Positions 11,349 to 53,832 of a stretch of DNA of 55,363 bases are shown here, in pieces. A program made the translations under genes and the position numbers. Every line of letters begins with the position of its first letter. The first letter of the stretch is position 1. The stretch lies in the IMG/VR virus record IMGVR_UViG_2721755498_000004; one strand, 5' to 3'. The notes under the pieces were generated by a model, which saw nothing but the letters and a program-made list of their open reading frames with translations, was not told the DNA's origin and did no database searches. This DNA is from a virus. Its lineage: Duplodnaviria; Heunggongvirae; Uroviricota; Caudoviricetes.

Positions 11349-11686
11349 CAGATCACCACTTCGTCAAACTGACACGAAAAATCGGTATAGGTGATATGTT
11401 CTGTCGCTGACCACGTTCGACACACCACTCTGATTTTTCTGTTAATACCCGGCGGGCGCCAAAAAAAAGATTTATAGCCTTCATGCCGGGCTAAAAATTT
11501 TTCAAATGAATCACGTTCATTCGCCTCAACTTTGAAATCACAGGTGAAAACGCGCAGAGAATGATTAAGTCCATTTGGACTTCGTTGCTCATAACCATCG
11601 CCAAATCTTACAGTTTTTATCGATGGTTTATTTTCTGTTTTCATTCCATCCTCTGGTAACCAGTGAAATTCTTCCGTATTAGCCAC
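11348..11686 (-). CDS. M: minor tail protein, lambda gpM-like
   Basis: 112 aa; conserved VRFGDGYEQR and FxxFLxxHxGxKSFxWxPP-type motifs recalled from lambda M; follows the tape-measure gene. Confidence 0.8.
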   Translation of the reverse strand: MANTEEFHWLPEDGMKTENKPSIKTVRFGDGYEQRSPNGLNHSLRVFTCDFKVEANERDSFEKFLARHEGYKSFFWRPPGINRKIRVVCRTWSATEHITYTDFSCQFDEVVI

Positions 11687-13027: not shown

Positions 13028-14222
<1,195 letters not shown>

Positions 14223-28887: not shown

Positions 28888-30345
28888 TTAGGAGCGCCAA
28901 AAAAAACCTGAAAACAATATAATAACAGGATAAATTTCAAGGCGACCAAGAATCATAGCTATGCACATTAAATATTTTGCAATGTCATTAAGCACTCCGA
29001 ATGACGATGCAGTAGCCCCAAAACCTAATCCCATATTATTAATACATGCAGCCACTGTTGCAAATGATGTAAGAAAATCATATCCCATACCATTTAACAC
29101 CAGTATAAAAAACACCGTGAAGAGAGTATAAAGAAAAAAGAAACTCCATACAGACCTCATTACACGATCTGTAACTATCTTCCCTCCTACATTTACACTC
29201 AACAACGCTCTGGGATGAGAAAGCTGATTTATCTCGTGTTTGCTTTGTTTGAAAAGTATAAGAAATCGAAGTGACTTAATTCCACCACAGGTTGAACCTA
29301 TACATCCCCCAAAGAAACTTGACAACAGCAAAAACACTATCGTGTGCGTGGGCCAGTTTGCATAATCCTGCGTAGCTAAACCATTATCAGTGAGCATGGA
29401 GCTGGCAAGAAAAAACGAATGAATAAAACTTCCATGCAAGTCATACATACCTATATGCCAGACCTGGAAAGAGGTAACAATGATCACCCCTAAGGCTATT
29501 AACAGAAAGAAACGAAGTTCAATATCTCTGATTAAAGGTTTTATCGTTTTTCTGCTAATAACAATATACCAAAGAGTGAAGTTGAAAGCCGATAGCAGGG
29601 AAAAAGAACCAGCCACCAGCTCAACCAAATAGTTATTAAAATATCCGATACTCTCGCTATGAGTTGAGAAACCACCAAGCGAAACTGTGGAAATCCCGTG
29701 ACAAATAGCATCAAACAAAGGCATTCCTGCAAGTCTATAACAGACAATACAAGCAATACCTAATAAAGAATAAGTTATCCACAGTGTCCGTGACGTATCG
29801 GCCAGGCGGGGAGTGAGTTTGTCATCCTTAAATGGCCCCGGCATTTCTGACTGATAAAGCTTTGCACCACCAATACCCAATAATGGCAATACTGCAACCG
29901 CCAGAACAATAACTCCTAAACCACCTATAAAATTTAACTGTGACCGATAGTACAAATATGCCCGAGGTAATGAACTAACATCATCAATTACAGTTGCTCC
30001 TGTTGTTGTTATTCCAGAAACCCCTTCAAACAGAGCATCAATGAACGTTAAATTAAGTTCTGAGTCAATCCATAAAGGGAATGCACTAATAACAGAAAAC
30101 AAAATCCAAAACATTACAATTATAATAAACCCATCACGGGTACGTAATTGAATGCCAGATTTCTTAGTTGTATACCACGCTCCGCCACCAATGCAAAAAA
30201 ATATAACGAAAGTTATAAAGAAAACGAACAGGCTTTTTTCTTTATAAAACAATGCTACAACCATTGGTGGCAACATTGAAAGACTATAGAGCCAAACCAA
30301 GAACCCACACATATGAGTAACAACTCTTACATGAGATGTATTCAT
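28888..30345 (-). CDS. trkG: TrkH/TrkG-family potassium uptake protein
   Basis: Polytopic membrane protein; from MNTSHVRVVTH it is 485 aa, the length of K-12 TrkG, which is a known Rac cargo gene; AT-rich relative to neighbours. Confidence 0.9.
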   Translation of the reverse strand: MNTSHVRVVTHMCGFLVWLYSLSMLPPMVVALFYKEKSLFVFFITFVIFFCIGGGAWYTTKKSGIQLRTRDGFIIIVMFWILFSVISAFPLWIDSELNLTFIDALFEGVSGITTTGATVIDDVSSLPRAYLYYRSQLNFIGGLGVIVLAVAVLPLLGIGGAKLYQSEMPGPFKDDKLTPRLADTSRTLWITYSLLGIACIVCYRLAGMPLFDAICHGISTVSLGGFSTHSESIGYFNNYLVELVAGSFSLLSAFNFTLWYIVISRKTIKPLIRDIELRFFLLIALGVIIVTSFQVWHIGMYDLHGSFIHSFFLASSMLTDNGLATQDYANWPTHTIVFLLLSSFFGGCIGSTCGGIKSLRFLILFKQSKHEINQLSHPRALLSVNVGGKIVTDRVMRSVWSFFFLYTLFTVFFILVLNGMGYDFLTSFATVAACINNMGLGFGATASSFGVLNDIAKYLMCIAMILGRLEIYPVIILFSGFFWRS

Positions 30346-30482
30346 ATCTAAATATTCTTTCAATTATAACCACCTTGCTGCAATATTATGATTATACTGT
30401 ATAAAATTTAACTCCTCTTAGATCTTACTTCACTGTTCCTTATGAAACAATCATCAAAATGAATCATATTGTAGTTAAGATT

Positions 30483-33106: not shown

Positions 33107-33171
33107 TGATCTTACCCAGCAATAGTGGACACGCGGCTAAGTGAGTAAACTCTCAGTCAGAGGTGACTCAC

Positions 33172-33471
33172 ATGACAAAAACAGTATCAACCAGTAAAAA
33201 ACCCCGTAAACAGCATTCGCCTGAATTTCGCAGTGAAGCCCTGAAGCTTGCTGAACGCATCGGTGTTACTGCCGCAGCCCGTGAACTCAGCCTGTATGAA
33301 TCACAACTCTACAACTGGCGCAGTAAACAGCAAAATCAGCAGACGTCTTCTGAACGTGAACTGGAGATGTCTACCGAGATTGCACGTCTCAAACGCCAGC
33401 TGGCAGAACGGGATGAAGAGCTGGCTATCCTCCAAAAGGCCGCGACATACTTCGCGAAGCGCCTGAAATGA
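33172..33471 (+). CDS. insE: IS3 transposase OrfA
   Basis: [32 protein letters not shown]... recognised as IS3 InsE; ATG 9 nt inside the track ORF, which starts at GTG 33163. Confidence 0.9.
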
Positions 33472-34334
33472 AGTATGTCTTTATTGAAAAACATCAGGCT
33501 GAGTTCAGCATCAAAGCAATGTGCCGCGTGCTCCGGGTGGCCCGCAGCGGCTGGTATACGTGGTGTCAGCGGCGGACAAGGATAAGCACGCGTCAGCAGT
33601 TCCGCCAACACTGCGACAGCGTTGTCCTCGCGGCTTTTACCCGGTCAAAACAGCGTTACGGTGCCCCACGCCTGACGGATGAACTGCGTGCTCAGGGTTA
33701 CCCCTTTAACGTAAAAACCGTGGCGGCAAGCCTGCGCCGTCAGGGACTGAGGGCAAAGGCCTCCCGGAAGTTCAGCCCGGTCAGCTACCGCGCACACGGC
33801 CTGCCTGTGTCAGAAAATCTGTTGGAGCAGGATTTTTACGCCAGTGGCCCGAACCAGAAGTGGGCAGGAGACATCACGTACTTACGTACAGATGAAGGCT
33901 GGCTGTATCTGGCAGTGGTCATTGACCTGTGGTCACGTGCCGTTATTGGCTGGTCAATGTCGCCACGCATGACGGCGCAACTGGCCTGCGATGCCCTGCA
34001 GATGGCGCTGTGGCGGCGTAAGAGGCCCCGGAACGTTATCGTTCACACGGACCGTGGAGGCCAGTACTGTTCAGCAGATTATCAGGCGCAACTGAAGCGG
34101 CATAATCTGCGTGGAAGTATGAGCGCAAAAGGTTGCTGCTACGATAATGCCTGCGTGGAAAGCTTCTTTCATTCGCTGAAAGTGGAATGTATCCATGGAG
34201 AACACTTTATCAGCCGGGAAATAATGCGGGCAACGGTGTTTAATTATATCGAATGTGATTACAATCGGTGGCGGCGGCACAGTTGGTGTGGCGGCCTCAG
34301 TCCGGAACAATTTGAAAACAAGAACCTCGCTTAG
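33468..34334 (+). CDS. insF: IS3 transposase OrfB (DDE domain)
   Basis: 288 aa, recognised as IS3 InsF; overlaps orfA as expected for the -1 frameshift fusion. Confidence 0.9.
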
Positions 34335-34364
34335 GCCTGTGTCCATATTACGTGGGTAGGATCA

Positions 34365-34707
34365 GCTCTGCCAGCACCTCACTTATGACTCTATCAATAC
34401 ATAACGCCTCTGCATCAGTACAATGCGCCAGCCAGGTCTTTTGCTTGCCATTGATCATCTCTCGCAAAAACGCTTCCAGCTCAGGTTTCTCTATTCCCGC
34501 TTTTTTCATCCTGCGCAGGGCTTCATTGACGGCTGTTTTCGTCAATTTTTTGGATGCCAGCAACTGGTTAAACATATTTCCCGTCTTACCGCCGCCAATA
34601 TACGACCAGCGCCCCCACATGCGCAGTTTTCCCTGAATCCAGACACTTTCCAGCGTGGTGAGACGAAGGTGTTCCCCGCTTTTGCCTGTATTTGTTGGGT
34701 AAATCAT
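34365..34707 (-). pseudogene. late antiterminator Q-like protein, N-terminal fragment (gene split by IS3)
   Basis: Start taken at ATG 34707 (MIYPTNTGKS..., AGGAAGG RBS, ATGA overlap with the upstream stop); the frame runs into IS3 and stops after 5 IS-encoded codons at 34348. Confidence 0.5.
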
Positions 34708-34994
34708 AAATAACCTTCCTTTCTCCAGATTTCTTGTGTGCGAAAAACACCTTCTGCATGCATCAGGCGTAATTCTTCTTTGGTGTAATCGCTGGTTTTT
34801 ACCCGCCCGTCGATTAAATCGTGGCATGAGCTACAGGCAATCGCTGCCTGCATATCGTGTGGTTTTGTCGCTGTTCCGCACGTCCCCGCCAGCCTGTAAT
34901 GCGCCAGCACAGAGGTTTCGGGATTGTGATTGCAGTAGCCAGGGATTCTGATCTGGCACATCTGGCCTTTAGCCGCTTTACGTAAATTCACCAT
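34704..34994 (-). CDS. DUF1364-family protein, YbcO-like
   Basis: 96 aa with Cys cluster (..CQIRIPGYCN..ETSVLAHYR..C...IACSSCHD..) resembling recalled DLP12 YbcO; nin-region position. Confidence 0.7.
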   Translation of the reverse strand: MVNLRKAAKGQMCQIRIPGYCNHNPETSVLAHYRLAGTCGTATKPHDMQAAIACSSCHDLIDGRVKTSDYTKEELRLMHAEGVFRTQEIWRKEGYL

Positions 34995-35593
34995 TACGCA
35001 AACTCCAGTAGTTGTGCGGCCACATTTTCAACTTCCTCCTGAGAGGAGAATTTACGGAACAGAATCCAGTTCCACAGCACATTCAGAACAGATTTATAAA
35101 CCTGCTGAAACTCGGTTTCGTCCATATTCGCAAACGCGATGGATTTCGCCCTGCGCCCACGGCTACCGTCCGGATAAATATGCTCGGTGTAAAATCCGGC
35201 CTGAATGGTTACCCACTCGCGGAAAGCCTCAAACGACTTTAGCAATGCCGTATCCCGAGTTCTGCGTGTCGCAACTGTATTTAGATATTGCTCTGCGGCA
35301 TCACTCAGGGCTGGTGTGTGTTCCCGACCAACTGATTCGCACAAGTAATCCACGAAACCAGACAGCAGTTCTCGTTCGCGAGGTGTGATCGCCCCACCGA
35401 CCGGAGTCCAGTAATCGAATCCCAGTTGCAGGAGTTTGAAAAAACGCTTGTGGAATGCGTAGTTACGCACACGCTTAAAGTCTGCGTGTATCCACTCACC
35501 TATTTTGATTTGATGCAGAAAATCGCAACTCTCCGGCGTCGCCGGGAGAAGTAAACCAGAAGAGGTTTGTTTGACCAGTTGTATATGCGCCAT
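34994..35593 (-). CDS. nin-region protein (DUF1367-like)
   Basis: 199 aa immediately upstream of the YbcO-like gene; family assignment is from weak recall. Confidence 0.45.
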   Translation of the reverse strand: MAHIQLVKQTSSGLLLPATPESCDFLHQIKIGEWIHADFKRVRNYAFHKRFFKLLQLGFDYWTPVGGAITPRERELLSGFVDYLCESVGREHTPALSDAAEQYLNTVATRRTRDTALLKSFEAFREWVTIQAGFYTEHIYPDGSRGRRAKSIAFANMDETEFQQVYKSVLNVLWNWILFRKFSSQEEVENVAAQLLEFA

Positions 35594-35873
35594 TTCTCAA
35601 TCTCTCGATGGCGCAGCGCAGCAGATGCCAGTTGTTCAGGCTGACGAATAAAGTATAAATAAACTGGCTATGGTGTAAAGCCCCACATAGCATGAACAAA
35701 CACTACATATCAAATAGCTGGTACAAGGATAGAAATACGACATTTATTATTAAAAACGATTAGATAAATTACATTTTAATGTTATGCAAAAGTTCTTTTT
35801 TATCATAACATTTCAATAAAAGCATTACAGATGCAATCATCCCGTCATCATCAATTATTTAAGGTGGTTAAAC

Positions 35874-35960
35874 ATGGAAAATAACAAGTTCGCACATCTC
35901 GCTCCTTTTTTATCCGTAATCCTTTTCGCTTGTTGTTTTATATGGGCATTATTTTTATAA
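35874..35960 (+). CDS. candidate small hydrophobic membrane peptide (28 aa)
   Basis: Hand-found ORF MENNKFAHLAPFLSVILFACCFIWALFL preceded by AAGGTGG at 6-nt spacing, in a 790-bp AT-rich stretch with no other ORF. Confidence 0.35.
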   Translation: MENNKFAHLAPFLSVILFACCFIWALFL

Positions 35961-36406
35961 AGTAGCCACATGATAAGTTGCTGGAATCATATTTCCCACT
36001 CAAGTCATTAACATTTGATAAGATATATCTAAAAGGACGCCTTTACATTATTTATGTGTATATAATTTATTTATATACACAGTAAAGGTATCCTGGGAAA
36101 ATATTTATCGTTAAAAAATACATCATAAATAATTAAGCTGAAATTTCAGAACACAACTAATACACACAATAAGGTTCAGTAACAATAATCTATGTGGACT
36201 ACATCGAGATTTTTTGATTAAACTTTAATAACTTATTCCTAACACACAGAATGCATAAACTAAAAGTAAAACAAATAGTTATACGAAAAACAACCATATT
36301 TATTATATCTTCTCCTCTAATCAACATATCAATTATGTGTTTCATAACAGCTTGACATAACCCTCAAAAACACGCATTTATAATGCATGTTTTTGATGAG
36401 GTGGTT

Positions 36407-36745
36407 ATGACACACAAGAGAATTCCTAAAGATTGGGTAATCAAACGCTCAACTCCGTTCTTCACAAAAGAGAACGTACCTTCAGCGTTATTAACACATC
36501 ATAATACAGCAGCAGGTGTTTTTGGGCAGTTGTGCGTAATGGAAGGCACTGTAACATATTATGGTTTTACTGATGAGAATGCTACTGAACCGGAGATAAA
36601 AGTAGTCATTAATGCTGGCGCTTTTGCAACAAGCCCACCACAATACTGGCACCGTGTTGAACTAAGCGATGATGCTCAGTTTAATATTAACTTTTGGGTC
36701 GCTCCAGACTTCTCGGGCGAAAAAGTCTATAGCACCAAAAAATAG
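36407..36745 (+). CDS. YeaR-like protein (DUF1971)
   Basis: 112 aa from MTHKRIPKDW; shares RSTPF...VMxGxVxYxGxxDE...EP...AGxFAxxPPxxWH...FNIxFxVAP with recalled E. coli YeaR. Confidence 0.65.
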   Translation: MTHKRIPKDWVIKRSTPFFTKENVPSALLTHHNTAAGVFGQLCVMEGTVTYYGFTDENATEPEIKVVINAGAFATSPPQYWHRVELSDDAQFNINFWVAPDFSGEKVYSTKK

Positions 36746-36774
36746 ATGATCATATTAAAAATGCTTTAACAGTC

Positions 36775-36811
36775 AGACCCGGCAGGGCTATCCCCGACGG
36801 GTCTCATTTTT
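36775..36811 (+). terminator. rho-independent terminator after the yeaR-like gene
   Basis: Imperfect 12-bp GC-rich stem (gacccggcaggg / ccccgacgggtc) with 4-nt loop, followed by TTTTT, 30 bp past the stop. Confidence 0.6.
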
Positions 36812-37468
36812 GTAAATATATTGGTTCTACATTGACAGGAGACTTCAACCATAAGAAGTAATCTGAATACTTGAGCAATAAATTTACTTAAGATTAATGA
36901 GCGCACCTTGCCGGACAAAGATAAACCAAGGTAACACCTTTTTTCTAGCCAGTATGTAATCAATCAGAAAGCCGCTCCATAAGAACAACAGCAAGACAAT
37001 AAATTGCCATTACAGCCGCAATAGCTAGCGCACATTTGAGAACCAGCACGACAACCTCCTGTATTGGACGTACACCAGTTCTGATAAATATGAGGCTGTC
37101 TCATCATTGATTCAATATAACTATTGGGTATAGTTTCTGTGATTTTGTTCTGTAGAAATGGAACACAACAACCAGTCACCACCAGCACTTCTTTAAATAC
37201 GCCAAGTCCGACGCAAGCTAACCTTCTAGTCCGCTTTGAGCGAGGAGCGGACCAAACCCGGCCAACTGACTCTTAAAGGGGCCGCAGGAATTTTTCGTCT
37301 GAACTTTCGAAGCTCCTCTCCCTGAAGACAGAAAACTTCTGTGTGCTGTGGGAATATTGAATCTTTGCCTTAGATATAAATAATTTTATCCCGCCTGAAG
37401 TTTACATTATTTTATTTATCTGTTTTTCTAAATCAGACTGCACTCCTTACTTAAATCAGGAGCCAGTC

Positions 37469-38668
37469 ATGCCATTTGTTATTTATGTGTTTACTATCAG
37501 TGCCTTTGCGCTCGGACTCGCGGAATTTGTCCCCATTGGGCTGACAGACGTTATGGCTCAGGGGTTGTGTGTGGGTGTGGAGCAGACCGGGGCAGCGGTT
37601 ACAACCTATGCACTGGGGGCAACGTTCGCGGCACCCGTACTGTCTGCGCTGACAGCAAGCTGGAGCCGGAAAAATGTAATGCTTACAACTGCCGTTGTGT
37701 TTACTGCCGGTAGTCTGGCGGCCGCGTTTGCAGCCACATTACCTCAGCTCCTGTTAGCGCGGTTCATTGCTGGTCTGGGACACGGCCTGTTTCTGGCTGC
37801 GGCATCCAGTACCGCAGCTCGTCTTGCTGGACCGGGTAAAGCAGGCAGAGCGGTGGCTGTGGTATTTGGTGGCTTTACTCTGGCGATGGCAATCGGCGTA
37901 CCGCTGAGTACATGGTTGGGGGGGGTGGTCTCATGGCGTCCAGTTCTCGGCGCTATTGCCGCTTTTGGCGCGTTCGGATTCCTTGGACTGTTGTTCGGTA
38001 TGAAAGATCCCGTACGCAGCGTGCCCGGTGAACATAGTGACTCAGCAATGCAGAATATCGGCATGCTGTTTAACCGTAAGTTGCTGGCCGGCGCGCTGGT
38101 TACGGTGCTGGCGTATGCAGGCTCGTTTACGGCTTACACCTTTATCGCACCTATTCTGACGCAGGTGACAGGGGTTACCGGAGCAACGGTGAGTCTGTTT
38201 ATGCTGGTTTACGGTATTACAGCTGCGGTAGGTAATATTCTTGGTGGGAAACTTACCGACAGCATGGGGGTTAATCGTGCCAATATACTCATCATTAGCG
38301 GCATTGTTGTTGTCGTGCTTGGTATGTGGCTGCTGTCATCCTCACCGGTGAGCATGGGCATTCTGGTTGCGCTGCTGGGTATGGTGACATTTGCCGCAGT
38401 GCCGGCACTGCAGGCCCGTCTGATTGGTGTCGCTGAGCAACATGCTCCTCATGCGCATGGTGTTGCTGCCGGCCTGAATATTGCGGGCTTCAACTCAGGT
38501 ATAGCGCTGGGATCAGTACTGGGCAGCATTACTATAAGCCACGCCGGTATCGTGTATACCGGTATCAGCGGTGCGATTGTTTCTCTGCTCGGCCTGCTGT
38601 TGCTGCTTGCACAAATCCGTCGCAGCCACAGTCGTAAATTTCAACAGGTTAAAATCGTAGGCCAGTAA
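37469..38668 (+). CDS. MFS transporter (12-TM)
   Basis: 399 aa, hydrophobic throughout, Gly/Ala-rich helices typical of major-facilitator permeases; GC-rich relative to phage genes. Confidence 0.8.
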   Translation: MPFVIYVFTISAFALGLAEFVPIGLTDVMAQGLCVGVEQTGAAVTTYALGATFAAPVLSALTASWSRKNVMLTTAVVFTAGSLAAAFAATLPQLLLARFIAGLGHGLFLAAASSTAARLAGPGKAGRAVAVVFGGFTLAMAIGVPLSTWLGGVVSWRPVLGAIAAFGAFGFLGLLFGMKDPVRSVPGEHSDSAMQNIGMLFNRKLLAGALVTVLAYAGSFTAYTFIAPILTQVTGVTGATVSLFMLVYGITAAVGNILGGKLTDSMGVNRANILIISGIVVVVLGMWLLSSSPVSMGILVALLGMVTFAAVPALQARLIGVAEQHAPHAHGVAAGLNIAGFNSGIALGSVLGSITISHAGIVYTGISGAIVSLLGLLLLLAQIRRSHSRKFQQVKIVGQ

Positions 38669-38679
38669 AGGGAGGTTAT

Positions 38680-39372
38680 ATGCTTACCCGTGAAAATATG
38701 CTTAATGGCACATTTGTCAGGGTGCATGAAGCGCTGCTCCCGGCGAATATGCTCTGGGACGCTGAAAAAATACGCGCATCAATGAACTCTACTCTGGAGG
38801 AGCGCCCGACGGGTGCTCCTGTCTGGATATTTGCCTACGGGTCATTGATGTGGAATCCCGTGCTGGCGATTGAAGAAATGCAACGGGCCCGTCTGAAAGG
38901 ATGGCAGCGCAGTTTCTGCATTCGTTTGATATCCGGACGAGCGACTCCTGATGTCCCCGGCAGGATGTTATCGCTCGACGAAGGTGGAATTACCGAAGGT
39001 ATTGCGTTCAGACTGCCGGAATCGACTCTTATTAATGAGCTGGAAATTGTCTGGACGCGCGAGATGATAACCGGTCTTTACCGTCCGGTCTGGGCAGACG
39101 TTTCGCTAGGAAACGGTGAGGAAATTCAGGCGCTGGCTTTCGTATCAGACAGACTGCATCCGCATTATGAACAGGACAATCTTACAGCGACCGTAGCGTT
39201 GAGCATCGCATCTGCCCGTGGAGACATTGGCACGAATGCAGATTATGTATGGAAACTGCAGGCCACTCTGGGTGCGTTGGGAATACGGGATGATTACGTG
39301 AGTGAACTGGCCCTTGCTCTGCATGAGGCTCCCTGTAACGATAAACTTCATCAGCGAGGCGCTTCACTATGA
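38680..39372 (+). CDS. ChaC-like gamma-glutamylcyclotransferase family protein
   Basis: 230 aa with YGSLMWNP motif, collinear with recalled E. coli ChaC; 11 bp after the MFS gene. Confidence 0.7.
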   Translation: MLTRENMLNGTFVRVHEALLPANMLWDAEKIRASMNSTLEERPTGAPVWIFAYGSLMWNPVLAIEEMQRARLKGWQRSFCIRLISGRATPDVPGRMLSLDEGGITEGIAFRLPESTLINELEIVWTREMITGLYRPVWADVSLGNGEEIQALAFVSDRLHPHYEQDNLTATVALSIASARGDIGTNADYVWKLQATLGALGIRDDYVSELALALHEAPCNDKLHQRGASL

Positions 39373-40250
39373 GCCATCTGAGCCATCTGCGAACGTTTCT
39401 TGAGGCCTATCGCTCTGGCTCCTTTTCAAAGGCGGCAGAACTACTGGGCATCACTCAGCCCGCGGCGTCACAGCATATCCAGTCTCTTGAGACTCTGGTT
39501 GGTAAGCGTCTGTTTATCAGGCAGGCCAGAGGCGTGACGGCAACCGAAGCTGCGGATGAGCTTGCCCGCTCAGTTTCACCCTTCATTGATGGTCTGGAAG
39601 AAAAGCTGTCCTCTTTCCGGTCAGGCTCTGTACGCGGGGGAACAATTAATCTGGCAGGACCGCCAGATTTTATTCATTCCCGGCTTGGGACAGTAATGGC
39701 TCCACTAATGAAGGAGGGGTATCGCCTACGCTTTCATACCGGCAATAAGCAACGTATTTATTCCCTTTTGCATGACGGGAGCGCCGATCTCGCTGTTACC
39801 GCATCTATGCCTGATGACCGTCTGTACGGCTATGCACATCTACTGACTGAACGCATGCTCCTTGTTCATGCTCCCGCCATGTCAGAGATCATCGGATCAG
39901 AACCTGGTGCTGAAACGCTTGCCTCATTACCGCTGATTGCTTATGACGAAGAGTTGCCACTGATTAGAGCGCTCTGGGCCTCCATGTTTCAGAGAGCCCC
40001 TGAGATGCAGGCTACATTCACCATTCCGGATTTACGTATTATCCGCGACTTGGTCTGTGACGGCCACGGGTGGACAGTGCTGCCGGATTATCACTGTGAC
40101 AATGACCTGAAAAGTGGTCGCCTGATTTCAGTGACACCTGCAGACCTCGCTCCGACTAATCATCTTTATCTGGTCTGGAACAAAAGGACGGCTAATAACA
40201 GCCGAACCGCCTATGTTCGGGATTACATTCTTAAAACGTTTCCGCGTTGA
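39369..40250 (+). CDS. LysR-family transcriptional regulator
   Basis: 293 aa; N-terminal HTH (..FSKAAELLGITQPAASQHIQSLE..) and LysR-type substrate-binding domain; 4-bp overlap with the ChaC-like gene. Confidence 0.85.
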   Translation: MSHLSHLRTFLEAYRSGSFSKAAELLGITQPAASQHIQSLETLVGKRLFIRQARGVTATEAADELARSVSPFIDGLEEKLSSFRSGSVRGGTINLAGPPDFIHSRLGTVMAPLMKEGYRLRFHTGNKQRIYSLLHDGSADLAVTASMPDDRLYGYAHLLTERMLLVHAPAMSEIIGSEPGAETLASLPLIAYDEELPLIRALWASMFQRAPEMQATFTIPDLRIIRDLVCDGHGWTVLPDYHCDNDLKSGRLISVTPADLAPTNHLYLVWNKRTANNSRTAYVRDYILKTFPR

Positions 40251-40380
40251 TGTTTGAAACGGATGATTGGCGATGCGTATCATAAGTTACGTATGTCCGC
40301 TTCTGGCACAAAGCAGACGCCCACTCTCACGCGAATGCTTTGCCCTTGACTTGCCAACAACCGTATCGCTTGCTCCGCAA

Positions 40381-41673
40381 CTATGGTTTTTTATTAGAAT
40401 CTTCGCCACTAAATAAATTATAATAAATTGATTTTATTAGATATCTGTCAGAATCTATATGGTCAGCACGAGTAGCATGCTCTAATGTTTCAAATGCCAG
40501 AGTATGTGCGGCTTCAGCAAATATCCCAGGCCAACCCTTACTCAGCATCGACAGTCCTTTAAGTACCCTTATCTGAATTTCCCTCATACTGGCACCATCG
40601 CGCGCAACAGGTGAGAAAAAGTCTTCAAGTAGATCGTTATTCTGAAGTGGTGCAACATGTACAGAAGGATATTTCACTTCTATTTCATCAGATTTATTCT
40701 GCGCGTAAGCGGAAAGTATACGTACACCTCTGCCAATGACATCAATGGCGGTTCCAGGATCGTTCACTGCGGGGGAAAGGGCTCGGCAGGCTATTTCGGC
40801 CATGACGCTAAGACAAAATCGGGGGTCCTGAGCAAATGAACGTACATCCGAGACAATAATCGTCTCAAGTAAATCGGTGCTGATTGATGACTCCTGGCCC
40901 TGACTCAGGTACAAAACTGGCGTGGACGGATGTATGAAACTGCCCGGCTGCGCCACGAGGTATACATGACGGGGATCATTGGTCAGCAGCTTGCTGAGTT
41001 TCACCATATCAACATATTCAACATAGCCAATCTTTTTCGGATAAACTGCAACCGTTCCTTTCGGCTGTTCATTGTTCTCAAGCCATGGATATCCGCCGAG
41101 ACAGGGATTTCTTGCTCTCGCAATAAATGTTTCGATGGCCGCCTGTTCTACTTTTGCCGTTGTCTCACCAACCCTCCCCAGAGAGGTCAAATGCTGTATC
41201 CAGCGAAGCAATGTGATGAGGATTAAGGCAATGACAACCAGTGTTACAATGAATAAAATGACTCTCCCCCTTTCTCCATAAGCTCCCATATTGAGGGCAA
41301 TAATCCCTACCAGACTGAAGAGAAAAGAACCGATGAAGGTGGCCAGTACATTTTGTGTGGTGACGTCTTCAACAACTAAACGAGTAGCTCTGGGAGTCAC
41401 ATTAGTAGTGGCTGAACCGTAGGCTGTGACCATGATGCTCAGCGAAAATGTGGTCACTGCCAGCATACTCGATGCCAGTATGTTCAGAATGTTATCGACT
41501 GCTTCCGCACCAACCTTCACGGAAACCGACTCAGGTATCATTGATTTAAAAAGAATTGATAAAAGGGCCGTTATTATTGCGACAATTGCGAATAACGTTG
41601 CCCTGAACCATAGTTTTTTAAATGTCTGCTTCAGCATCCATTTCCAGCGTGAAATCATTCTGCATTCCCTCAT
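40381..41673 (-). CDS. DUF2254-like membrane protein
   Basis: 430 aa; N-terminal block of about 4 TM helices and a large soluble C-terminal domain. Family name from recall. Confidence 0.5.
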   Translation of the reverse strand: MRECRMISRWKWMLKQTFKKLWFRATLFAIVAIITALLSILFKSMIPESVSVKVGAEAVDNILNILASSMLAVTTFSLSIMVTAYGSATTNVTPRATRLVVEDVTTQNVLATFIGSFLFSLVGIIALNMGAYGERGRVILFIVTLVVIALILITLLRWIQHLTSLGRVGETTAKVEQAAIETFIARARNPCLGGYPWLENNEQPKGTVAVYPKKIGYVEYVDMVKLSKLLTNDPRHVYLVAQPGSFIHPSTPVLYLSQGQESSISTDLLETIIVSDVRSFAQDPRFCLSVMAEIACRALSPAVNDPGTAIDVIGRGVRILSAYAQNKSDEIEVKYPSVHVAPLQNNDLLEDFFSPVARDGASMREIQIRVLKGLSMLSKGWPGIFAEAAHTLAFETLEHATRADHIDSDRYLIKSIYYNLFSGEDSNKKP

Positions 41674-41685
41674 ATTGCAGCCGGG

Positions 41686-41714
41686 ATAAATAAATGCCGC
41701 CTCTGTGGCGGCAT
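41686..41714 (-). terminator. rho-independent terminator candidate after the BCCT gene
   Basis: Stem atgccgcc/ggcggcat with 5-nt loop, followed on the minus strand by ttatttat; between the BCCT stop and the DUF2254 start. Confidence 0.5.
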
Positions 41715-41721
41715 GTTGCTG

Positions 41722-43725
41722 TTAACGAACCAGATGCAGGAAGTGCAGGTGTTTTTCGTACTGGTCCAGTATGTCATTAATCAGCTGTTCCTGATTCCAG
41801 CCCATTACATCATAATTTTGGCCGCCCTCTTTGAGATAGACTTCAGCGCGATAATATCGATGTTGTTCACTCTGCTGCTCATCATTATCCAGCGCAGCGA
41901 GCGCGAAGGTCGGTGAGTTATACCCGCGAAGCCTCACTTCATATATATAATTCAGCTCGTTGCCCAAATCGACTTCAAGGCGAATACGATCCTCGGCGGC
42001 GTCACTGATGTGGCTTATCGTTCCCTGCTTGTTAAGTTCCTCCTGAACCAGCGTCATGGCGGGTTGGATAATGTCGTCCATAAAACGTTTCACAAGAGAG
42101 CGCTTCGGCAAATACGCGATATTGCGTAACCTTCTCTGCCAGGGAATTGGGTTACGTGCAGCCGTAGGAGCAATAGTCGCCATGCTAAGGCTTTCACGCT
42201 TGGTTAAATCCCGACGCAGGGCTTTTAACAGTCCGTATATGGATATTAATAAGATAACTGAGAAGGGCAATGCACTCGCTATCGTTACGGTTTGCAACGC
42301 ACTCAGCCCCCCTGCGATCAGCAGGGCAATAGCAACAACGCCCATGAGCGATGCCCAGAAAATTCGCTGCCAGACGGGCGTGTTTGCCACCCCACCTGAT
42401 GCCAGAGTATCCACAACCATTGCCCCCGAATCAGCAGACGTTACAAAGAAGACGATGACCATCGCCATTGCAATGAATGACAGCACGGAAGAGAACGGGA
42501 AATGCTCCAGGAAATTAAACAGGGCAAGCGCAACATCCTGCTGAACGGTATTGGCGAGGTCAGTGGCGCCCTGGTTCATGATGAGATAGATGGCGCTGTT
42601 TCCAAACACCGTCATCCACATGAGCGTAAAGCCGGCGGGAACAAACAACACGCCAGTCACGAACTCACGAATTGTCCTGCCGCGGGAAACGCGTGCAATG
42701 AACATACCTACAAACGGCGACCATGAAAGCCACCATCCCCAGTATAATAATGTCCAGCCCCCCAGCCAGTTGCTCGACTTGGGTTCATACGCGTAAAGGT
42801 TGAACGTTTTACTCACCAGTTCCGACAGATAACCACCCGTATTTTCCACAAATGACTTCAGCAGAAGCACAGTGGGACCCAGGCACAAGACCAGCGCCAG
42901 GAGCAACACCGCCAGGCCCAGATTAAGCTCAGACAGGATGCGTATTCCCTTGTCCAGGCCGGACACCACCGAAATCGTCGCTAACCCCGTGATGACCACG
43001 ATCAAAATGACCTGTACCGTTTCATTGATGGGCACGCCGAAAAGATGGTTCAAACCGGCATTCACCTGCAATACACCGTAACCCAGCGATGTTGCAACGC
43101 CAAAGACAGTGCCTATCACGGCGAAGATATCAACCGCGTGGCCTATAGGCCCGTAAATGCGATCGCCGATAATGGGATAGAGCGCAGAACGCAGCGTTAA
43201 AGGCAGACCGTGACGGTAACTGAAAAAGGCCAGAATCAGCGCCACGATGGCATAAATTGCCCATGCGTGCAGACCCCAGTGGAAGAACGTCAGGCGCATG
43301 GCTTCCTTCGCTGCCGCAACGGTCTCTGGAGTGCCGACAGGTGGCGAAAGATAATGCATCACAGGTTCGGCAACGCCAAAGAACATCAGGCCGATCCCCA
43401 TCCCTGCCGAAAAAAGCATCGCGAACCAGGAGTGGTAGCTGAAATCAGGCTGCGCATGGTCTGGGCCCAGCTTTATATCACCGTAACGTGAGAGTCCAAG
43501 GAACGTGACGCTCAGTAAAATCAGGGCCACAGCAAGTATGTAGAACCAGCTGGCATTCGTGAAGATTTGTTGCTGAAGTAGTTTAAAATTTTTGTCGGCG
43601 ACATCCGGGAATACGGCGGCAAAGGCGACAAGAAGGAAAATTAGCAAAGCAGATGTAAAGAATACCGCTTTGTTAATCTGGCTTGTAGACTTCTTTGGGG
43701 TTGTATCATTTTCACTCATAATCAT
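41722..43725 (-). CDS. BCCT-family transporter (BetT-like)
   Basis: 667 aa; 12-TM core with Trp-rich segment (WTLLYWGWWLSWSPFVGMFIARVSRGRTIREF) typical of BCCT carriers, plus a long cytoplasmic C-terminal extension as in BetT. Confidence 0.85.
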   Translation of the reverse strand: MIMSENDTTPKKSTSQINKAVFFTSALLIFLLVAFAAVFPDVADKNFKLLQQQIFTNASWFYILAVALILLSVTFLGLSRYGDIKLGPDHAQPDFSYHSWFAMLFSAGMGIGLMFFGVAEPVMHYLSPPVGTPETVAAAKEAMRLTFFHWGLHAWAIYAIVALILAFFSYRHGLPLTLRSALYPIIGDRIYGPIGHAVDIFAVIGTVFGVATSLGYGVLQVNAGLNHLFGVPINETVQVILIVVITGLATISVVSGLDKGIRILSELNLGLAVLLLALVLCLGPTVLLLKSFVENTGGYLSELVSKTFNLYAYEPKSSNWLGGWTLLYWGWWLSWSPFVGMFIARVSRGRTIREFVTGVLFVPAGFTLMWMTVFGNSAIYLIMNQGATDLANTVQQDVALALFNFLEHFPFSSVLSFIAMAMVIVFFVTSADSGAMVVDTLASGGVANTPVWQRIFWASLMGVVAIALLIAGGLSALQTVTIASALPFSVILLISIYGLLKALRRDLTKRESLSMATIAPTAARNPIPWQRRLRNIAYLPKRSLVKRFMDDIIQPAMTLVQEELNKQGTISHISDAAEDRIRLEVDLGNELNYIYEVRLRGYNSPTFALAALDNDEQQSEQHRYYRAEVYLKEGGQNYDVMGWNQEQLINDILDQYEKHLHFLHLVR

Positions 43726-44059
43726 TTATTCCATTAATTAAATCCGCACTGGATAGAAGGTACTACCTCTCACAGAGTAGCAAAGTTCAACTGGCTATGC
43801 GGGGTTAATCGGAATGCATGGTGGAATGAGTGCCGATACAAATCATCCTATATTCTAAGGAGTTTTAAGTTACTCAGCCTGCCAATTACTGGGGCATTTA
43901 ATTTGTATGATCTGTATCAAAGCTGGGATATAAGTTAAGTGAAGTATATTAGGCACGAATTACCAGCGTCTGCTCTTGGCACAAAGCGGACAACCACGCT
44001 AGCTCTACCCTGTGCCACAAAATGTCAATTTGCATCTGAACTAATGCACTTTAATCTCG

Positions 44060-44482
44060 TCACTTCAATAAATACCGAACATCCCCCTGATAAAACGACA
44101 ATATGCGCTGCATAACTTCGCTCTTCCGGCACTCGCGACAGATTATGTTTAGGCGACTGTCGTAGCGACGTATTTCTCCGTCAGGTAATGACCAGATAAG
44201 GTCCGGATCAACCACAACCGGTTTCTTCAGCTTTGCCCTCGATAATTTTTTGCGGACATTTTGCCAGTCTTTACGAGCCTGTTCAGACGGGAATAACCCG
44301 TAGCCAGAATTGTATACATCGCCACTGGCAACCAGCTCTCTGGCCAGAACGCTCATCAGATATCTTGTTGCCCCAGTTTTAGCTTCCAGTTGTCGTAACG
44401 TCTCGCGCCCACTCTGGCGTACGAGTTCAAGAACCTGCCCTTTAATTTTTTCCCGCTCTTCTTGTGTAAAAACTTTTGCCAC
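44060..44482 (-). CDS. hypothetical protein (140 aa), last gene of the replication-side block
   Basis: Basic protein with a CRECRK segment, downstream of the initiator-like gene; not DnaC-like. Confidence 0.4.
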   Translation of the reverse strand: MAKVFTQEEREKIKGQVLELVRQSGRETLRQLEAKTGATRYLMSVLARELVASGDVYNSGYGLFPSEQARKDWQNVRKKLSRAKLKKPVVVDPDLIWSLPDGEIRRYDSRLNIICRECRKSEVMQRILSFYQGDVRYLLK

Positions 44483-44522
44483 AAGCCCTCCTGAAAATTA
44501 CCTCATGACCAGAAATTAACAC

Positions 44523-45599
44523 TTACCCCCTGAAGCCCGGCGGAATTTCGTTATCCGGTTCAGAAATATGATTCACACAACGCTGGTTGTTCGTGCCGCT
44601 TACCGGGAGCAACCAGGGGTTCTCAAAATTCCGGTCCGGTCCAAAAAACGTCGTCGCTCGCTGAACAAATTCCGTTCCCGTTTTCCCGGTAGCCGCCAAG
44701 TATCTTGCGTAACGCCTCACGCCATCCAGCATGGCCTCTGGTGGCACCCCCTCGCGTAATCTGGCCTTCCAGGCACTGAAAGCGGATTTCTTCGGGTTTG
44801 CCCCAGCACGCAACGGGTACTCCCGCCAGACCTGTTCGAACACATCCGGATAATCCACTCGTCCCACAGACTGCCCGGTGTTTTCCGGGACTACCCGATC
44901 GGCTTCCCGCTGAATGGCGGAATCGGCTTCAGGCTGCTGCAGTTGGTGTGATTGCTCCGCCCTTGCGGTCATCACCTGCTGCACAGCGCCCGAATCGGCT
45001 TTCAGCGCATACGCTGAATCGGCTTCCGGTGTCGTGCCTGCTGGCTGACCAAGATTGACGGTCTGAACATCCCCTGCCTGGTTCGTGGCGTTTTTTACGC
45101 CATGGACCATAGTGTTTTGATCTTCTTGATCTGTATCTTTATCTGTATCTTTATCTGTCGTGACTCGTCGTGACATGTGCGTGACATTTCGTGACGCGCC
45201 GTGACAATCGCCATTTTGTTCCCGCTTTCTTTCCCTCTCTCGCTGCGCCCTCTTGCGCTCTGCAGGAGATTTTGCGGTTTGCGAAATATTGCCGTTGTCC
45301 TCTTTAAGCACCTGGCGTTTTTCCCATCCAGTGATTAAATCACCATCAAGTACCCGCCCCTGCATCGTCTGCAAAATTGAATCAATTACCTCTTCTGTCA
45401 CGTCGAGCGCACTTGCCAAATCTTCTGTCGTGACATCAATGTGACCTCGCGTGACATTTCGTGACGCGCTCACCAGGAGGTGGATATACACTGCCATCAC
45501 TGTTGCAATTGGCTGTCCTGACACCCTGGCAATTGTTCGCCACTTAGGGTCATTTGGCATGTCATGCCATAATCTGAGCCAGGCGTTAGCCATACTCAC
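44523..45599 (-). CDS. replication initiator-like protein (lambda O-position), contains iteron-like repeats
   Basis: 358 aa; N-terminal domain, internal acidic TDKDTDKDTD linker encoded by DNA repeats, C-terminal domain; located after the Cro-like and YdaT-position genes. Confidence 0.5.
   Translation of the reverse strand: MSMANAWLRLWHDMPNDPKWRTIARVSGQPIATVMAVYIHLLVSASRNVTRGHIDVTTEDLASALDVTEEVIDSILQTMQGRVLDGDLITGWEKRQVLKEDNGNISQTAKSPAERKRAQRERERKREQNGDCHGASRNVTHMSRRVTTDKDTDKDTDQEDQNTMVHGVKNATNQAGDVQTVNLGQPAGTTPEADSAYALKADSGAVQQVMTARAEQSHQLQQPEADSAIQREADRVVPENTGQSVGRVDYPDVFEQVWREYPLRAGANPKKSAFSAWKARLREGVPPEAMLDGVRRYARYLAATGKTGTEFVQRATTFFGPDRNFENPWLLPVSGTNNQRCVNHISEPDNEIPPGFRG
45129..45205. 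repeat. iteron-like array 1: tandem ATCTGTATCTTT x2 then five CGTGAC repeats at 10-11-bp spacing
   Basis: CGTGAC at about 45159, 45169, 45180, 45190, 45200; read directly from the sequence. Confidence 0.6.
45430..45470. repeat. iteron-like array 2: four (C/T)GTGAC repeats at 10-11-bp spacing
   Basis: Repeats at about 45430, 45441, 45451, 45461; the 21-bp block gcgtgacatttcgtgacgcgc (45450-45470) is identical to 45179-45199. Confidence 0.6.
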
Positions 45600-47915: not shown

Positions 47916-47966
47916 ATCAATAACTCTCAACTGTAAGGGTATTGAAATGTTGGTAATGACTCCAAC

Positions 47967-48470
47967 TTATTGATAGTGTTTTATGTTCAGATAATGCCCG
48001 ATGACTTTGTCATGCAGCTCCACCGATTTTGAGAACGACAGCGACTTCCGTCCCAGCCGTGCCAGGTGCTGCCTCAGATTCAGGTTATGCCGCTCAATTC
48101 GCTGCGTATATCGCTTGCTGATTACGTGCAGCTTTCCCTTCAGGCGGGATTCATACAGCGGCCAGCCATCCGTCATCCATATCACCACGTCAAAGGGTGA
48201 CAGCAGGCTCATAAGACGCCCCAGCGTCGCCATAGTGCGTTCACCGAATACGTGCGCAACAACCGTCTTCCGGAGCCTGTCATACGCGTAAAACAGCCAG
48301 CGCTGGCGCGATTTAGCCCCGACGTATCCCCACTGTTCGTCCATTTCCGCGCAGACGATGACGTCACTGCCCGGCTGTATGCGCGAGGTTACCGACTGCG
48401 GCCTGAGTTTTTTAAGTGACGTAAAATCGTGTTGAGGCCAACGCCCATAATGCGGGCTGTTGCCCGGCAT
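47967..48470 (-). CDS. insB: IS1 transposase InsB
   Basis: 167 aa recognised as IS1 InsB. Confidence 0.9.
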
Positions 48471-48664
48471 CCAACGCCATTCATGGCCATATCAATGATT
48501 TTCTGGTGCGTACCGGGTTGAGAAGCGGTGTAAGTGAACTGCAGTTGCCATGTTTTACGGCAGTGAGAGCAGAGATAGCGCTGATGTCCGGCGGTGCTTT
48601 TGCCGTTACGCACCACCCCGTCAGTAGCTGAACAGGAGGGACAGCTGATAGAAACAGAAGCCAC
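48389..48664 (-). CDS. insA: IS1 protein InsA
   Basis: 91 aa with zinc-finger-like CxxC..CxxC N-terminus, recognised as IS1 InsA. Confidence 0.9.
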
Positions 48665-49133
48665 TGGAGCACCTCAAAAACACCATCATACACTAAATCA
48701 GTAAGTTGGCAGCATCACCTGAAATGTTAACACAAGCTCTCGCTGTAGGGGTATAGCCGAGACCACCGAAGCCCGGAGGTGGTGAAATAAAACCGGGCAC
48801 AACACGAAGGCGCATTTCCGATATCCATAAAGAGTCGGTCTTGTCTGTTAAATTTAAATGGTGGGAGTGCGCCTCCGGTTGTAAATAACGACATTGCTGT
48901 GTGTAGTCCTGGCGGCATCAGTTTTTTTCTTGAAGTTCGGCTGATGTCCGCCCTTTTTAAAGTGAATTTTGTGATGCGGTGAATGCGGCTAAGCGCACGT
49001 GGCACAGTTAAAAGTCATGTTAGTCCTTATTGGTTTGGGTGGGAAAGCCGACTGTAATTGTTAACTGGTTGCAGTCACCTGGAGGCACCAGACACCGCAT
49101 CAACAAAGTTCATTTGTAAAAATGGAGATAATT

Positions 49134-53435: not shown

Positions 53436-53630
53436 ATGAGATATGACAATATTAAACCATGTCCATTTTGTGGTTGCCCATCAGTAACGGTGAAAGCCAT
53501 TTCAGGATATTACCGAGCGAAGTGTAACGGATGCGAATCCCGAACCGGTTATGGTGGAAGTGAAAAAGAAGCACTCGAAAGATGGAATAAACGAACCACT
53601 GGAAATAATAATGGAGGTGTTCATGTATAA
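53436..53630 (+). CDS. ralR: restriction-alleviation protein / toxin RalR (Lar)
   Basis: 64 aa from MRYDNIKPCPFCGC with CxxC..CxxC zinc ribbon; follows recT. Confidence 0.8.
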   Translation: MRYDNIKPCPFCGCPSVTVKAISGYYRAKCNGCESRTGYGGSEKEALERWNKRTTGNNNGGVHV

Positions 53631-53832
53631 AATTACCGCCACTATTGAAAAGGAAGGTGGCACTCCTACTAACTGGACAAGATATTCAAAATCTAAACTA
53701 ACGAAATCAGAATGCGAAAAAATGCTCTCAGGTAAAAAAGAAGCAGGCGTTTCCAGAGAGCAGAAAGTAAAACTGATAAATTTTAATTGCGAGAAACTTC
53801 AGTCCTCGAGAATTGCATTGTATTCAAATTAA
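53623..53832 (+). CDS. ydaC: small protein YdaC-like (69 aa)
   Basis: Internal ATG with GGAGG RBS (MYKITATIEKEGG...); overlaps the ralR stop; size matches K-12 YdaC. Confidence 0.55.
   Translation: MYKITATIEKEGGTPTNWTRYSKSKLTKSECEKMLSGKKEAGVSREQKVKLINFNCEKLQSSRIALYSN

Follow-up and report, generated by a model that had tools for sequence, protein, structure and literature searches.

A cargo region of mosaic structure between ren and ninB

The window analysed here, a 55,363-nucleotide viral sequence (IMG/VR record IMGVR_UViG_2721755498_000004), is a full-length but defective Rac-family prophage of E. coli, and between its replication-side and nin-region genes lies a block of transport and metabolism genes (35594-44059) whose make-up, origin and mode of entry are the question raised by this locus. 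The initial annotation described the block as one non-phage cargo insertion of about 8.5 kb. Cargo does lie at this place, but not as one 8.5-kb insertion: BLAST against 5426 complete E. coli genomes, together with fetched loci (given below as L numbers), defined the limits of the pieces, and the block is a mosaic of at least three that are independently distributed. We put at about 70% the probability that the region is an accessory hotspot in the ren-ninB interval, made up of an older moron region and a two-cassette array, whose content is exchanged at 24-bp palindromes.

Homology to prophages with other cargo stops at 37252 and restarts at 43968, which placed the insertion boundaries and left 37253-43967 (6715 bp) as the variable cargo. 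On the left, homology to L004, L006 and L100 stops at the 3′ end of the first palindrome, and on the right the backbone homology to L004 and L006 begins at 43968. The left 1.66 kb of the interval (35594-37252) is a separate, widely shared accessory segment; 34901-37252 is about 97% (96.8%) identical to strain 22AR0434 (L006), whose slot holds different cargo (SIR2, NTP pyrophosphatase, adenosine deaminase and TetR genes). The full array (at least 80% of 35000-44600) was present in 229 of the 5426 genomes and the MFS unit in 296, that is, in about 4-5% of complete E. coli genomes and not in most Rac-like phages, and no deposited phage genome in INPHARED carries the cargo.

The PHROGs matches identify DUF977 as Ren-like and DUF1367 as NinB/Orf, which places the block between ren and ninB on the lambdoid map; nearby, DUF1364 and DUF1133 are labelled HNH endonuclease and Q-like antiterminator, respectively. 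All six genes named in the initial annotation (DUF1971, MFS, ChaC, LysR, DUF2254 and BCCT) were verified by Pfam, and the composition is heterogeneous, as had been described (GC 0.30 in 35594-36406, 0.41 in 36746-37252, 0.55 in the MFS gene, 0.45 in DUF2254 and 0.51 in BCCT). Since the cargo as a whole (GC 0.50) resembles both the rest of the prophage (0.485) and chromosomal flank genes (0.51), composition alone gives no proof of foreign origin; the composition and codon-usage check that had been proposed did not separate the cargo overall from phage or chromosome and was of no use for the boundaries.

A palindrome at each joint of the array

Each of the three joints of the array (Table 1) carries a palindrome of the form GTCCGCT-N10-AGCGGAC, in which 9-bp arms (GTCCGCTyT and AAAGCGGAC) surround a 6-bp asymmetric centre. 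The R form (GTCCGCTyyTGGCACAAAGCGGAC, centre TGGCAC) is found on the DUF977 side and the L form (GTCCGCTnTGAGCGArrAGCGGAC, centre TCGCTC in the same strand sense) on the hok side, L being roughly the reverse complement of R. The two slot ends form the top inverted repeat of the region, with 37-nt arms at 37216-37252 and 43968-44004 that are 76% complementary and have exactly 6715 nt between them; the second-ranked and longest direct-repeat family is the pair 40295-40327 and 43968-44000. A loose version of the palindrome pattern has three matches in the 55-kb window, all at joints, while Markov simulations gave a mean of 0.21 matches and reached three in 1 of 300.

When the joints were aligned with their relatives, similarity to each relative started or ended inside the palindrome or at its edge, and each arm went with its own side. 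The internal copy (40295-40318) is chimeric: its left flank is as in the relatives of the LysR unit, and its right arm (AAAGCAGAC) and right flank are as in the betU unit, i.e., the DUF2254-BCCT pair of cassette 2. The betU-side sequence of this copy matches a plasmid and even a chromosomal locus. Rfam, at gathering and permissive thresholds, gave nothing at the palindromes, and an open-access literature search by sequence strings gave no relevant match for them.

Recurrence of the palindrome in unrelated elements

The exact R pattern was found in at least 120 viral contigs, a sample gathered with that same pattern and hence biased as to R variation and slot frequency. In these contigs and in E. 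coli loci, at least 58 L..R pairs surround at least 20 unrelated cargo clusters of 0.4-5.8 kb, including HAD+NUDIX, RelA_SpoT-like, DUF4365, Macro, GIY-YIG, SIR2, MFS+hydrolase+LysR and WYL+SDR. Within the 24-mer, mean pairwise identity among at least 69 distinct R contexts was 0.89-0.98; directly beyond it, to the left and to the right, the value was 0.26-0.38. Where cassettes follow one another, the joint is usually a doublet of R and L separated by 18 nt (R-18-L).

The same element delimits one cassette in the lambdoid phage mEp460_ev081 and bounds a small chromosomal island of E. coli ATCC 25922. In P2, fun(Z) lies between an R-type copy and a degenerate L-type copy (AF063097, 15335-15358 and 17432-17455); a P2-like prophage (L223) has the order sheath gene, L, DUF6650 cassette, R-18-L, second cassette, R and tail-fibre assembly gene, and phage 899 has the same layout with two cassettes delimited. 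Copies also bound the betU unit in the IncY plasmid pECO-6dfa, whose flanks are unrelated to phage except for an IS1 copy, and the palindrome is found beside the same gene pair in the E. coli chromosomal betU locus.

These contexts are hard to reconcile with an ordinary moron history, in which the cargo would have entered by illegitimate recombination and spread by homologous recombination in the phage flanks, the palindromes being backbone elements only (e.g., insulators or protein-binding sites). Such a history would draw on the facts that the slot-end L and R copies lie in conserved backbone, where 13 further nt form a weak inverted repeat, that Rac encodes RecET, and that Rad52-like phage recombinases are reported to exchange DNA between phages and defective prophages (PMC3945230). 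The palindrome, however, also occurs at the internal joint, as doublets between the cassettes of other arrays, around the betU unit in a plasmid, beside the same pair in the chromosome, and around the cargo of P2-like phages with an unrelated backbone, and identity is near-random on both sides of the 24-mer. We therefore consider a moron history of this kind unlikely.

A poorer candidate is that the palindromes are repeats of donor chromosomes resembling repetitive extragenic palindromic sequences and bacterial interspersed mosaic elements (REP/BIME), and that the cassettes end at them since REPs are recombination-prone. In a REP/BIME family many chromosomal copies are expected, whereas 1518 of the 5426 E. 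coli genomes contained the R-18-L doublet, with a median of one site in each (maximum 4), so that the palindrome is not a genome-wide REP element in E. coli. In some 190 kb of chromosomal and prophage sequence from E. coli, copies lay only at slots, AT-rich cargos of many unrelated types have the same two palindromes, and the native MFS-ChaC-LysR unit of Enterobacter has none at its ends. What speaks for such repeats comes from other hosts, where a REP-like origin of the palindromes is possible: Enterobacter sp. BIGb0383 has the doublet in an intergenic region that is otherwise ordinary (L089 20293-20358), and GC-rich viral contigs (GC 0.54-0.57) contain clusters of ATGTCCGCTTT-N6-7-AAAGCGGACAT with the same arms, varied centres and a spacing of about 45 nt (L137 310-1404; L140 100-169 and 6721-6835; L191 7175-7443). 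These clusters lie beside integrated elements with serine or tyrosine recombinase, terminase and capsid genes, and look like REP/BIME-type repeats of the host. Overall, we regard this explanation as quite improbable.

Degenerate copies were also observed in the Qin prophage of E. coli K-12 (NC_000913.3; L221 9982-10005 and 10973-10996, corresponding to about 1645981 and 1646972), beside relB/ydfV and between flxA and ydfW. As degenerate palindromes flank it, the K-12 relBE-ydfV-flxA region lies in the same kind of slot. The second Qin copy is found again, together with its flank, in plasmid pECO-6dfa (L094 151-174).

Distinct origins of the two cassettes

In E. coli, copies of 37238-40318 occur only at 99% identity or more (296 genomes). 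A chromosomal relative of cassette 1, of the kind that the initial annotation had proposed to look for, was found in Enterobacter sp. BIGb0383, with 87% nucleotide identity over 37356-40253 and the same architecture. The unit was also found in two other contig families at 82-90% nucleotide identity, with the ChaC/LysR overlap kept. The neighbours of the chromosomal relatives differ, and no phage genes lie near them except for a TolA-like gene in L092 and L093. This donor-like context came only via a large protein collection; GTDB species representatives scanned with ChaC gave a best match of 62% and no conserved neighbours. From these comparisons, cassette 1 appears to derive from an Enterobacter-like chromosome.

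The LysR gene is arranged atypically, being co-directional with and overlapping the genes that it presumably controls, and is translationally coupled to the ChaC gene. The ChaC-like protein contains the N-terminal YGSL motif (FAYGSLMW, aligned with FGYGSLIW of human ChaC2, 6ky1), and a stretch TREMITGLY resembles the RE..GGY motif, with low alignment confidence there. The predicted functions suggest that cassette 1 is a LysR-controlled operon for moving and cleaving a gamma-glutamyl compound.

A palindrome-bounded MFS-ChaC-LysR unit with a frameshifted LysR gene was observed in a non-E. coli enterobacterial metagenome-assembled genome (GCA_002455885.1, contig DKLQ01000009; L092 7763-16649), followed by an R-18-L doublet, a gene for a 915-aa HD-CE/HATPase protein, an R copy and the TolA-like gene. 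This array lies between hydN/fdhF-like and hyc genes, and looks like a cassette array within a chromosomal island or prophage remnant.

For cassette 2, the span 40293-43992 is 99.7% identical over exactly that length in pECO-6dfa, and the cassette occurs at 99% identity or more in 68 plasmids of E. coli, Klebsiella and Enterobacter. A chromosomal E. coli paralogue is present beside the fec/IS island in many genomes, with 94.6% identity over 40299-43828. A betU-like gene was detected in 1958 of the 5426 genomes, the allele of Rac and plasmids (at least 99% identity) in 406 records and the chromosomal allele (about 93%) in 1554. As the gene is mostly single copy per genome, the mobile betU allele would mainly supply strains that lack the chromosomal one. 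DUF2254 is always linked to the BCCT gene, in chromosome, plasmids and Rac.

The BCCT protein (RefSeq model of 665 aa, start at 43719) exceeds the cutoff of the NCBIfam BetT subfamily NF007399 (752 bits versus 695) and stays below that of the glycine-betaine equivalog NF047988 (593 versus 650). The alignment of its residues 7-667 with a BCCT transporter of solved structure (PDB 8ybq, 3.9e-193) is full-length and takes in the C-terminal tail. Hydropathy of the DUF2254 protein indicates four hydrophobic helices in the N-terminal part, and a soluble domain of some 265 aa; the AlphaFold2 model (mean pLDDT 78) predicts the soluble domain well, and has no informatively similar solved structure.

BetU was reportedly described in uropathogenic E. 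coli by Ly and colleagues in 2004. The pair also resembles that of Tn6062, an insertion sequence (IS)1-flanked composite transposon with the betU pair in IncHI1 PST6 plasmids of S. Typhi, and the two coding sequences of Tn6062 cloned by Holt and colleagues (betU and the neighbouring membrane protein gene, 3405 bp) allow S. Typhi to grow in 0.8 M NaCl (PMC3139670). The 3′ 20 nt of one cloning primer match 40391-40410 exactly, and the predicted amplicon here is 3403 bp versus the published 3405 bp; likened by primer sites and fragment size, the pair of cassette 2 agrees with the Tn6062 fragment in position and size. Both are BCCT+DUF2254 pairs with a BetT/BetU architecture and a long C-terminal tail; the vehicle here is a prophage slot and not an IS1 transposon, and nucleotide identity to the copy in the E. 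coli chromosome reaches only 93-94%. The osmoprotectant uptake that had been suggested thus fits the BCCT protein, by its BetT-subfamily membership and by the osmotolerance conferred by the Tn6062 fragment (PMC3139670). By this analogy, the lysogen would be expected to gain osmotolerance from the BetU-type uptake of glycine betaine or proline betaine.

That the betU pair came in an IS-flanked composite transposon like Tn6062, the rest of the block being unrelated, is very improbable. Tn6062 has the same gene pair between IS1 copies (PMC3139670), IS1 and IS26 lie near the pair in plasmids, and IS1, IS3 and IS5 copies are present in the window. No IS or IS remnant, however, is found inside 37253-43967 or at the ends of 40293-43992; the nearest elements, IS3 and IS1, are both outside the slot, and the unit shared with plasmids ends exactly at two palindromes. 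In some strains, the array is interrupted by IS3, IS100 and ISKpn26 copies but identical in all other respects; these copies are secondary.

A proposed model of cargo exchange at the palindromes

We infer that the cassettes would have been brought in by recombination at the palindromes. As inverted copies of each other, L and R bracket the slot, and an exchange of L with L and of R with R would swap the cargo without excision and leave the phage genes untouched. A further R with R event would add the betU unit, which has an R copy at each end in the window as well as in the plasmid. The catalyst could be a dedicated site-specific recombinase, or short-homology recombination via RecET or Orf(NinB) acting on the 24 identical base pairs; on the premise that crossover takes place at the palindromes, we estimate the chance of the former at a little under half, that of the latter at two in five, and that of any other route at the small remainder. 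In the lysogen, the expected outcome would be lysogenic conversion.

The 9-6-9 layout reads as the form of a recombinase core site. More tentatively, the 24-bp palindromes may define, by heterospecific inverted core sites, one cassette-exchange system that is common to the lambdoid ren-ninB interval, the P2 G-FI interval, plasmids and chromosomal islands of Enterobacteriaceae; we hold this broader proposition as a possibility that falls well short of an even chance.

Besides the bias of the contig sample, the following points weigh against cargo exchange at the palindromes as outlined here. No recombinase acting on the palindromes was identified, and most slots contain none. No compensatory changes were seen in the stems, and two junction copies (B and C) fold weakly as DNA (-3 and -5 kcal/mol), so that a hairpin mechanism is not supported; a duplex protein-binding or identity-based role fits the data better. 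A promoter scan was at chance (14 found, 13.7 expected), and therefore no statement on expression is made. The second Tn6062 primer site, at 43772-43793, has a 14-nt identical core and five mismatches, and the Tn6062 betU allele was compared by primer sites and fragment size. The prophage is defective and has three IS insertions, and spread of this copy by infection is therefore unlikely; this copy is fixed in the chromosome, and its cargo is now vertically inherited or moved by other means. A purely structural hairpin role in RNA or single-stranded DNA is not supported either, as the stems lack compensatory changes.

Some cassettes contain a gene for a 200-227-aa tyrosine recombinase (Phage_integrase; L004 7870-8472, L222 7125-7727 and L139 5393-6076; e.g., WP_001305361.1), which adjoins proteins without assigned function and a HEC-08 candidate defence protein. 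Few cassettes contain this enzyme, which is possibly the cassette recombinase or simply cargo.

Relation to known exchange systems

According to PMC8987985, which cites Nilsson, Karlsson and Haggard-Ljungquist (2004), inverted repeats flank fun and enable its site-specific exchange; judging from their position, the repeats of the 2004 study would be the palindromes described here. Hotspot studies of 2022 and 2026 call the exchange mechanism open and do not mention these repeats (PMC9122126; PMC13586616). In the open-access literature, we found neither an account of the lambdoid ren-ninB slot as delimited by the repeats nor one of the present cargo in Rac.

The slot shares with the P2 Z/fun locus unrelated cargos at one fixed site with breakpoints at the repeats, bracketing by inverted palindromes with the same repeat, and the layout, in which backbone is followed by L, cargo, R and again backbone, neighbouring cassettes being separated by R-18 nt-L. 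Compared with the R consensus, the R-type copy of P2 agrees at 22 of 24 positions; its L-type copy agrees with the L palindrome of the window at 19 of 24. The two differ in phage family and position (G-FI in P2, the lambdoid ren-ninB interval here), in the outer flanks (TCTGACA and TGTCAGA in P2, AGCTAACCTTCTA and AACCACGCTAGCT here) and in cargo, which in P2 consists of exclusion/defence genes and here of transport and metabolism genes. In addition, P2-like arrays have a doublet between cassettes, whereas the internal joint here is a single R copy. PADLOC gave no match to a defence system for DUF1971, MFS, ChaC, LysR and DUF2254 (BCCT was not submitted).

The pdif modules of Acinetobacter plasmids are flanked by inversely oriented XerC/XerD sites. 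They resemble the cassettes here as modules between short inverted arm-spacer-arm sites that form arrays and are common to unrelated replicons, while the palindrome is unrelated in sequence to dif; since its arms are identical (9-6-9), a homodimer rather than XerC plus XerD is suggested. Integron cassettes likewise form arrays of diverse cargo with a short structured site at each joint. The 24-mer, however, lacks the R′′/R′ GTTRRRY cores and is present as two inverted sites per cassette versus one attC, and an integron was rejected, with no IntI integrase and no attI in the window and no Rfam attC match.

Lambdoid morons, reportedly described by Juhala and colleagues in 2000, are similar in being extra genes between phage genes, with expression expected from the prophage and dispensable for phage growth; the cassettes differ from them in being operons of several genes (3-3.7 kb) that have a regulator of their own, and in ending at defined palindromes.

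Organization of the surrounding prophage

The coordinates of the features are listed in Table 1.

Table 1. Features of the cargo region and of the rest of the prophage, by position in the window
Feature	Coordinates	Strand	Evidence and remarks
Tape-measure gene, C-terminal part	11679-13097		Tape_meas_lam_C
IS5-type transposase gene	13096-14076	+	DDE_Tnp_1, DUF772; inserted in tail tape-measure gene
Tape-measure gene, N-terminal part	14015-16111		TMP_2
trkG	28888-30363		TrkH domain; GC 0.377, lowest among genes checked
IS3-family element	orfA 33163-33471, orfB 33468-34334		rve domains; adjoins Q-like antiterminator gene
DUF1367, NinB/Orf-like recombination mediator	34994-35593	-	Left backbone flank; Pfam 5.9e-98; phrog_319 3.2e-70
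AT-rich spacer upstream of ninB	35594-36406		GC 0.30; shared Rac-like accessory segment, outside variable cargo
DUF1971 (YeaR/TehB-N-terminal-like)	36383-36745	+	Pfam 2.6e-26; RefSeq 36407-36745, 112 aa
Conserved segment upstream of hokD in Qin/Rac-like prophages	36945-37252		Ends in L palindrome
29-aa hydrophobic open reading frame	36960-37049	-	GTG start; MLVLKCALAIAAVMAIYCLAVVLMERLSD; unannotated
L palindrome	37229-37252	+	GTCCGCTTTGAGCGAGGAGCGGAC; left boundary of variable cargo
Cassette 1	37253-40294	+	216-bp upstream region, then MFS, ChaC, LysR
MFS_1, DHA1-type	37469-38668	+	Pfam 2.9e-42
ChaC-like gamma-glutamylcyclotransferase	38680-39372	+	Pfam PF04752 3e-35
LysR	39369-40250	+	HTH_1 4.4e-21, LysR_substrate 3.6e-26; start overlaps ChaC stop
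Cassette 2 as mobile unit, with both bounding palindromes	40293-43992		
R-type palindrome	40295-40318	+	GTCCGCTTCTGGCACAAAGCAGAC; cassette 1/cassette 2 joint
DUF2254 membrane protein	40381-41673	-	Pfam 1.6e-92; RefSeq 425 aa, 40381-41658
Intrinsic-terminator-like hairpin and T-run	41694-41714	-	Directly after BCCT stop codon
BetU/BetT-type BCCT transporter	41722-43725	-	Pfam PF02028 7.2e-199, profile 1-485/485
R palindrome	43968-43991	+	GTCTGCTCTTGGCACAAAGCGGAC; right boundary of variable cargo, 69 nt after DUF977 stop
DUF977, Ren-like	44060-44482	-	Right backbone flank; Pfam 6.5e-28; phrog_142 "Ren-like exclusion protein" 2.3e-44
358-aa replication initiator with DnaD-like helicase-loader C-terminal part	44523-45599	-	phrog_3729 2.2e-257
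IS1 copy	47952-48719		In immunity/sieB region; 99.7% identical to IS1A of plasmid pECO-6dfa

In the left accessory segment, DUF1971 is replaced by hokD in strain BL12, in which the downstream cargo is the same, and both genes are present in the strain of L007. As hokD replaces or accompanies DUF1971 in other strains and the cargo varies, DUF1971 is regarded as a separate small moron. About 1,600 E. coli genomes match only 36945-37252, as estimated by subtracting the roughly 350 genomes that match most of the region from the 1993 that match any of it, and this segment appears to be a remnant of the hok region. The 29-aa open reading frame within it lies upstream of hokD in other prophages. It stays open in 35 distinct homologous segments of 85-100% nucleotide identity, and the changes in the C-terminal 16 residues, which were checked, are mostly conservative (V/I and E/D; also M/T); it may encode a small membrane protein or type I toxin.

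The initial annotation noted that no DnaC/P-like helicase loader is present. No separate DnaC or lambda-P loader gene lies between the initiator and ren in the window, but the initiator carries a DnaD-like loader part (residues 124-358 match phrog_1701 "DnaD-like helicase loader", 8.5e-63). Its residues 335-358 weakly resemble the DnaT C-terminus (NCBIfam E 7e-4; PDB 6aep E 0.003), which hints at a way of recruiting the host replisome; apart from this tail, PDB sequence searches with DUF977 and the replication protein gave nothing significant. The pair of initiator (RepOrg) and DUF977 adjoins many unrelated cargos in viral contigs and is present in the plaque-forming isolated phage mEp460_ev081; the replication module is a complete alternative type and not a damaged one. 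In Rac-like phages with the alternative ydaU/ydaV(DnaC-like)/DUF1627 module, too, DUF977 is the last gene ahead of the slot. The idea of a block that took the place of part of the replication module, i.e., a DnaC/P-type loader such as the ydaV product of K-12-type Rac, has next to no chance of being right, as it is contradicted by the gene order, with DUF977 intact between initiator and block and the loader of ydaV-type modules upstream of DUF977, away from the slot.

The right half of the window is 99% identical to annotated Rac loci (L001 and L003) that adjoin ttcA and contain intR, xisR, recET, ralR, kilR, sieB and trkG, and an Rfam match to the RalA small RNA lies at 53629-53807 (225 bits). 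By these features the window belongs to Rac; ttcA itself lies outside it. The IS5-type element splits the tape-measure gene, and the prophage is unable to make tails.

The Q-like gene (DUF1133, 34348-34707) ends at 34348 and has about 180 codons in other strains, its C-terminus apparently cut by IS3. An Rfam match to the IS009 candidate small RNA (1273-1471, minus strand; 221 bits versus a gathering threshold of 117) lies inside the tfaR-like tail-fibre-assembly gene region.

The K+ transporter gene trkG is the classic foreign transporter cargo of Rac, and was observed here as a second transporter cargo of the same prophage and window. It occupies another slot, after the lysis genes, and has no flanking 24-bp palindromes, all three copies in the window being at the ren-ninB slot.

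Significance of the cargo slot

We regard the cargo block as ordinary and the hotspot as one of a kind already known, with a boundary element that is under-appreciated. A phage hotspot best known for defence genes can hold 3-kb metabolic operons with their own regulator, and the cargo is a plausible fitness factor, as the predicted BetU-type importer is carried in about 4-5% of E. coli genomes, most of them without a chromosomal copy. The boundary element is what merits further work: a single conserved 24-bp palindrome marks the cargo joints in lambdoid and P2-like phages, a plasmid and a chromosomal island and so links these cargo sites. Linking the P2 proposal of 2004 with the recent hotspot surveys makes the question of exchange directly testable. 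If the palindromes do define one common system, it would be a natural form of recombinase-mediated cassette exchange, moving transport and metabolic operons as well as defence genes, and would supply the mechanism for the hotspot swapping that was called unknown in the 2022 and 2026 papers (PMC9122126; PMC13586616).

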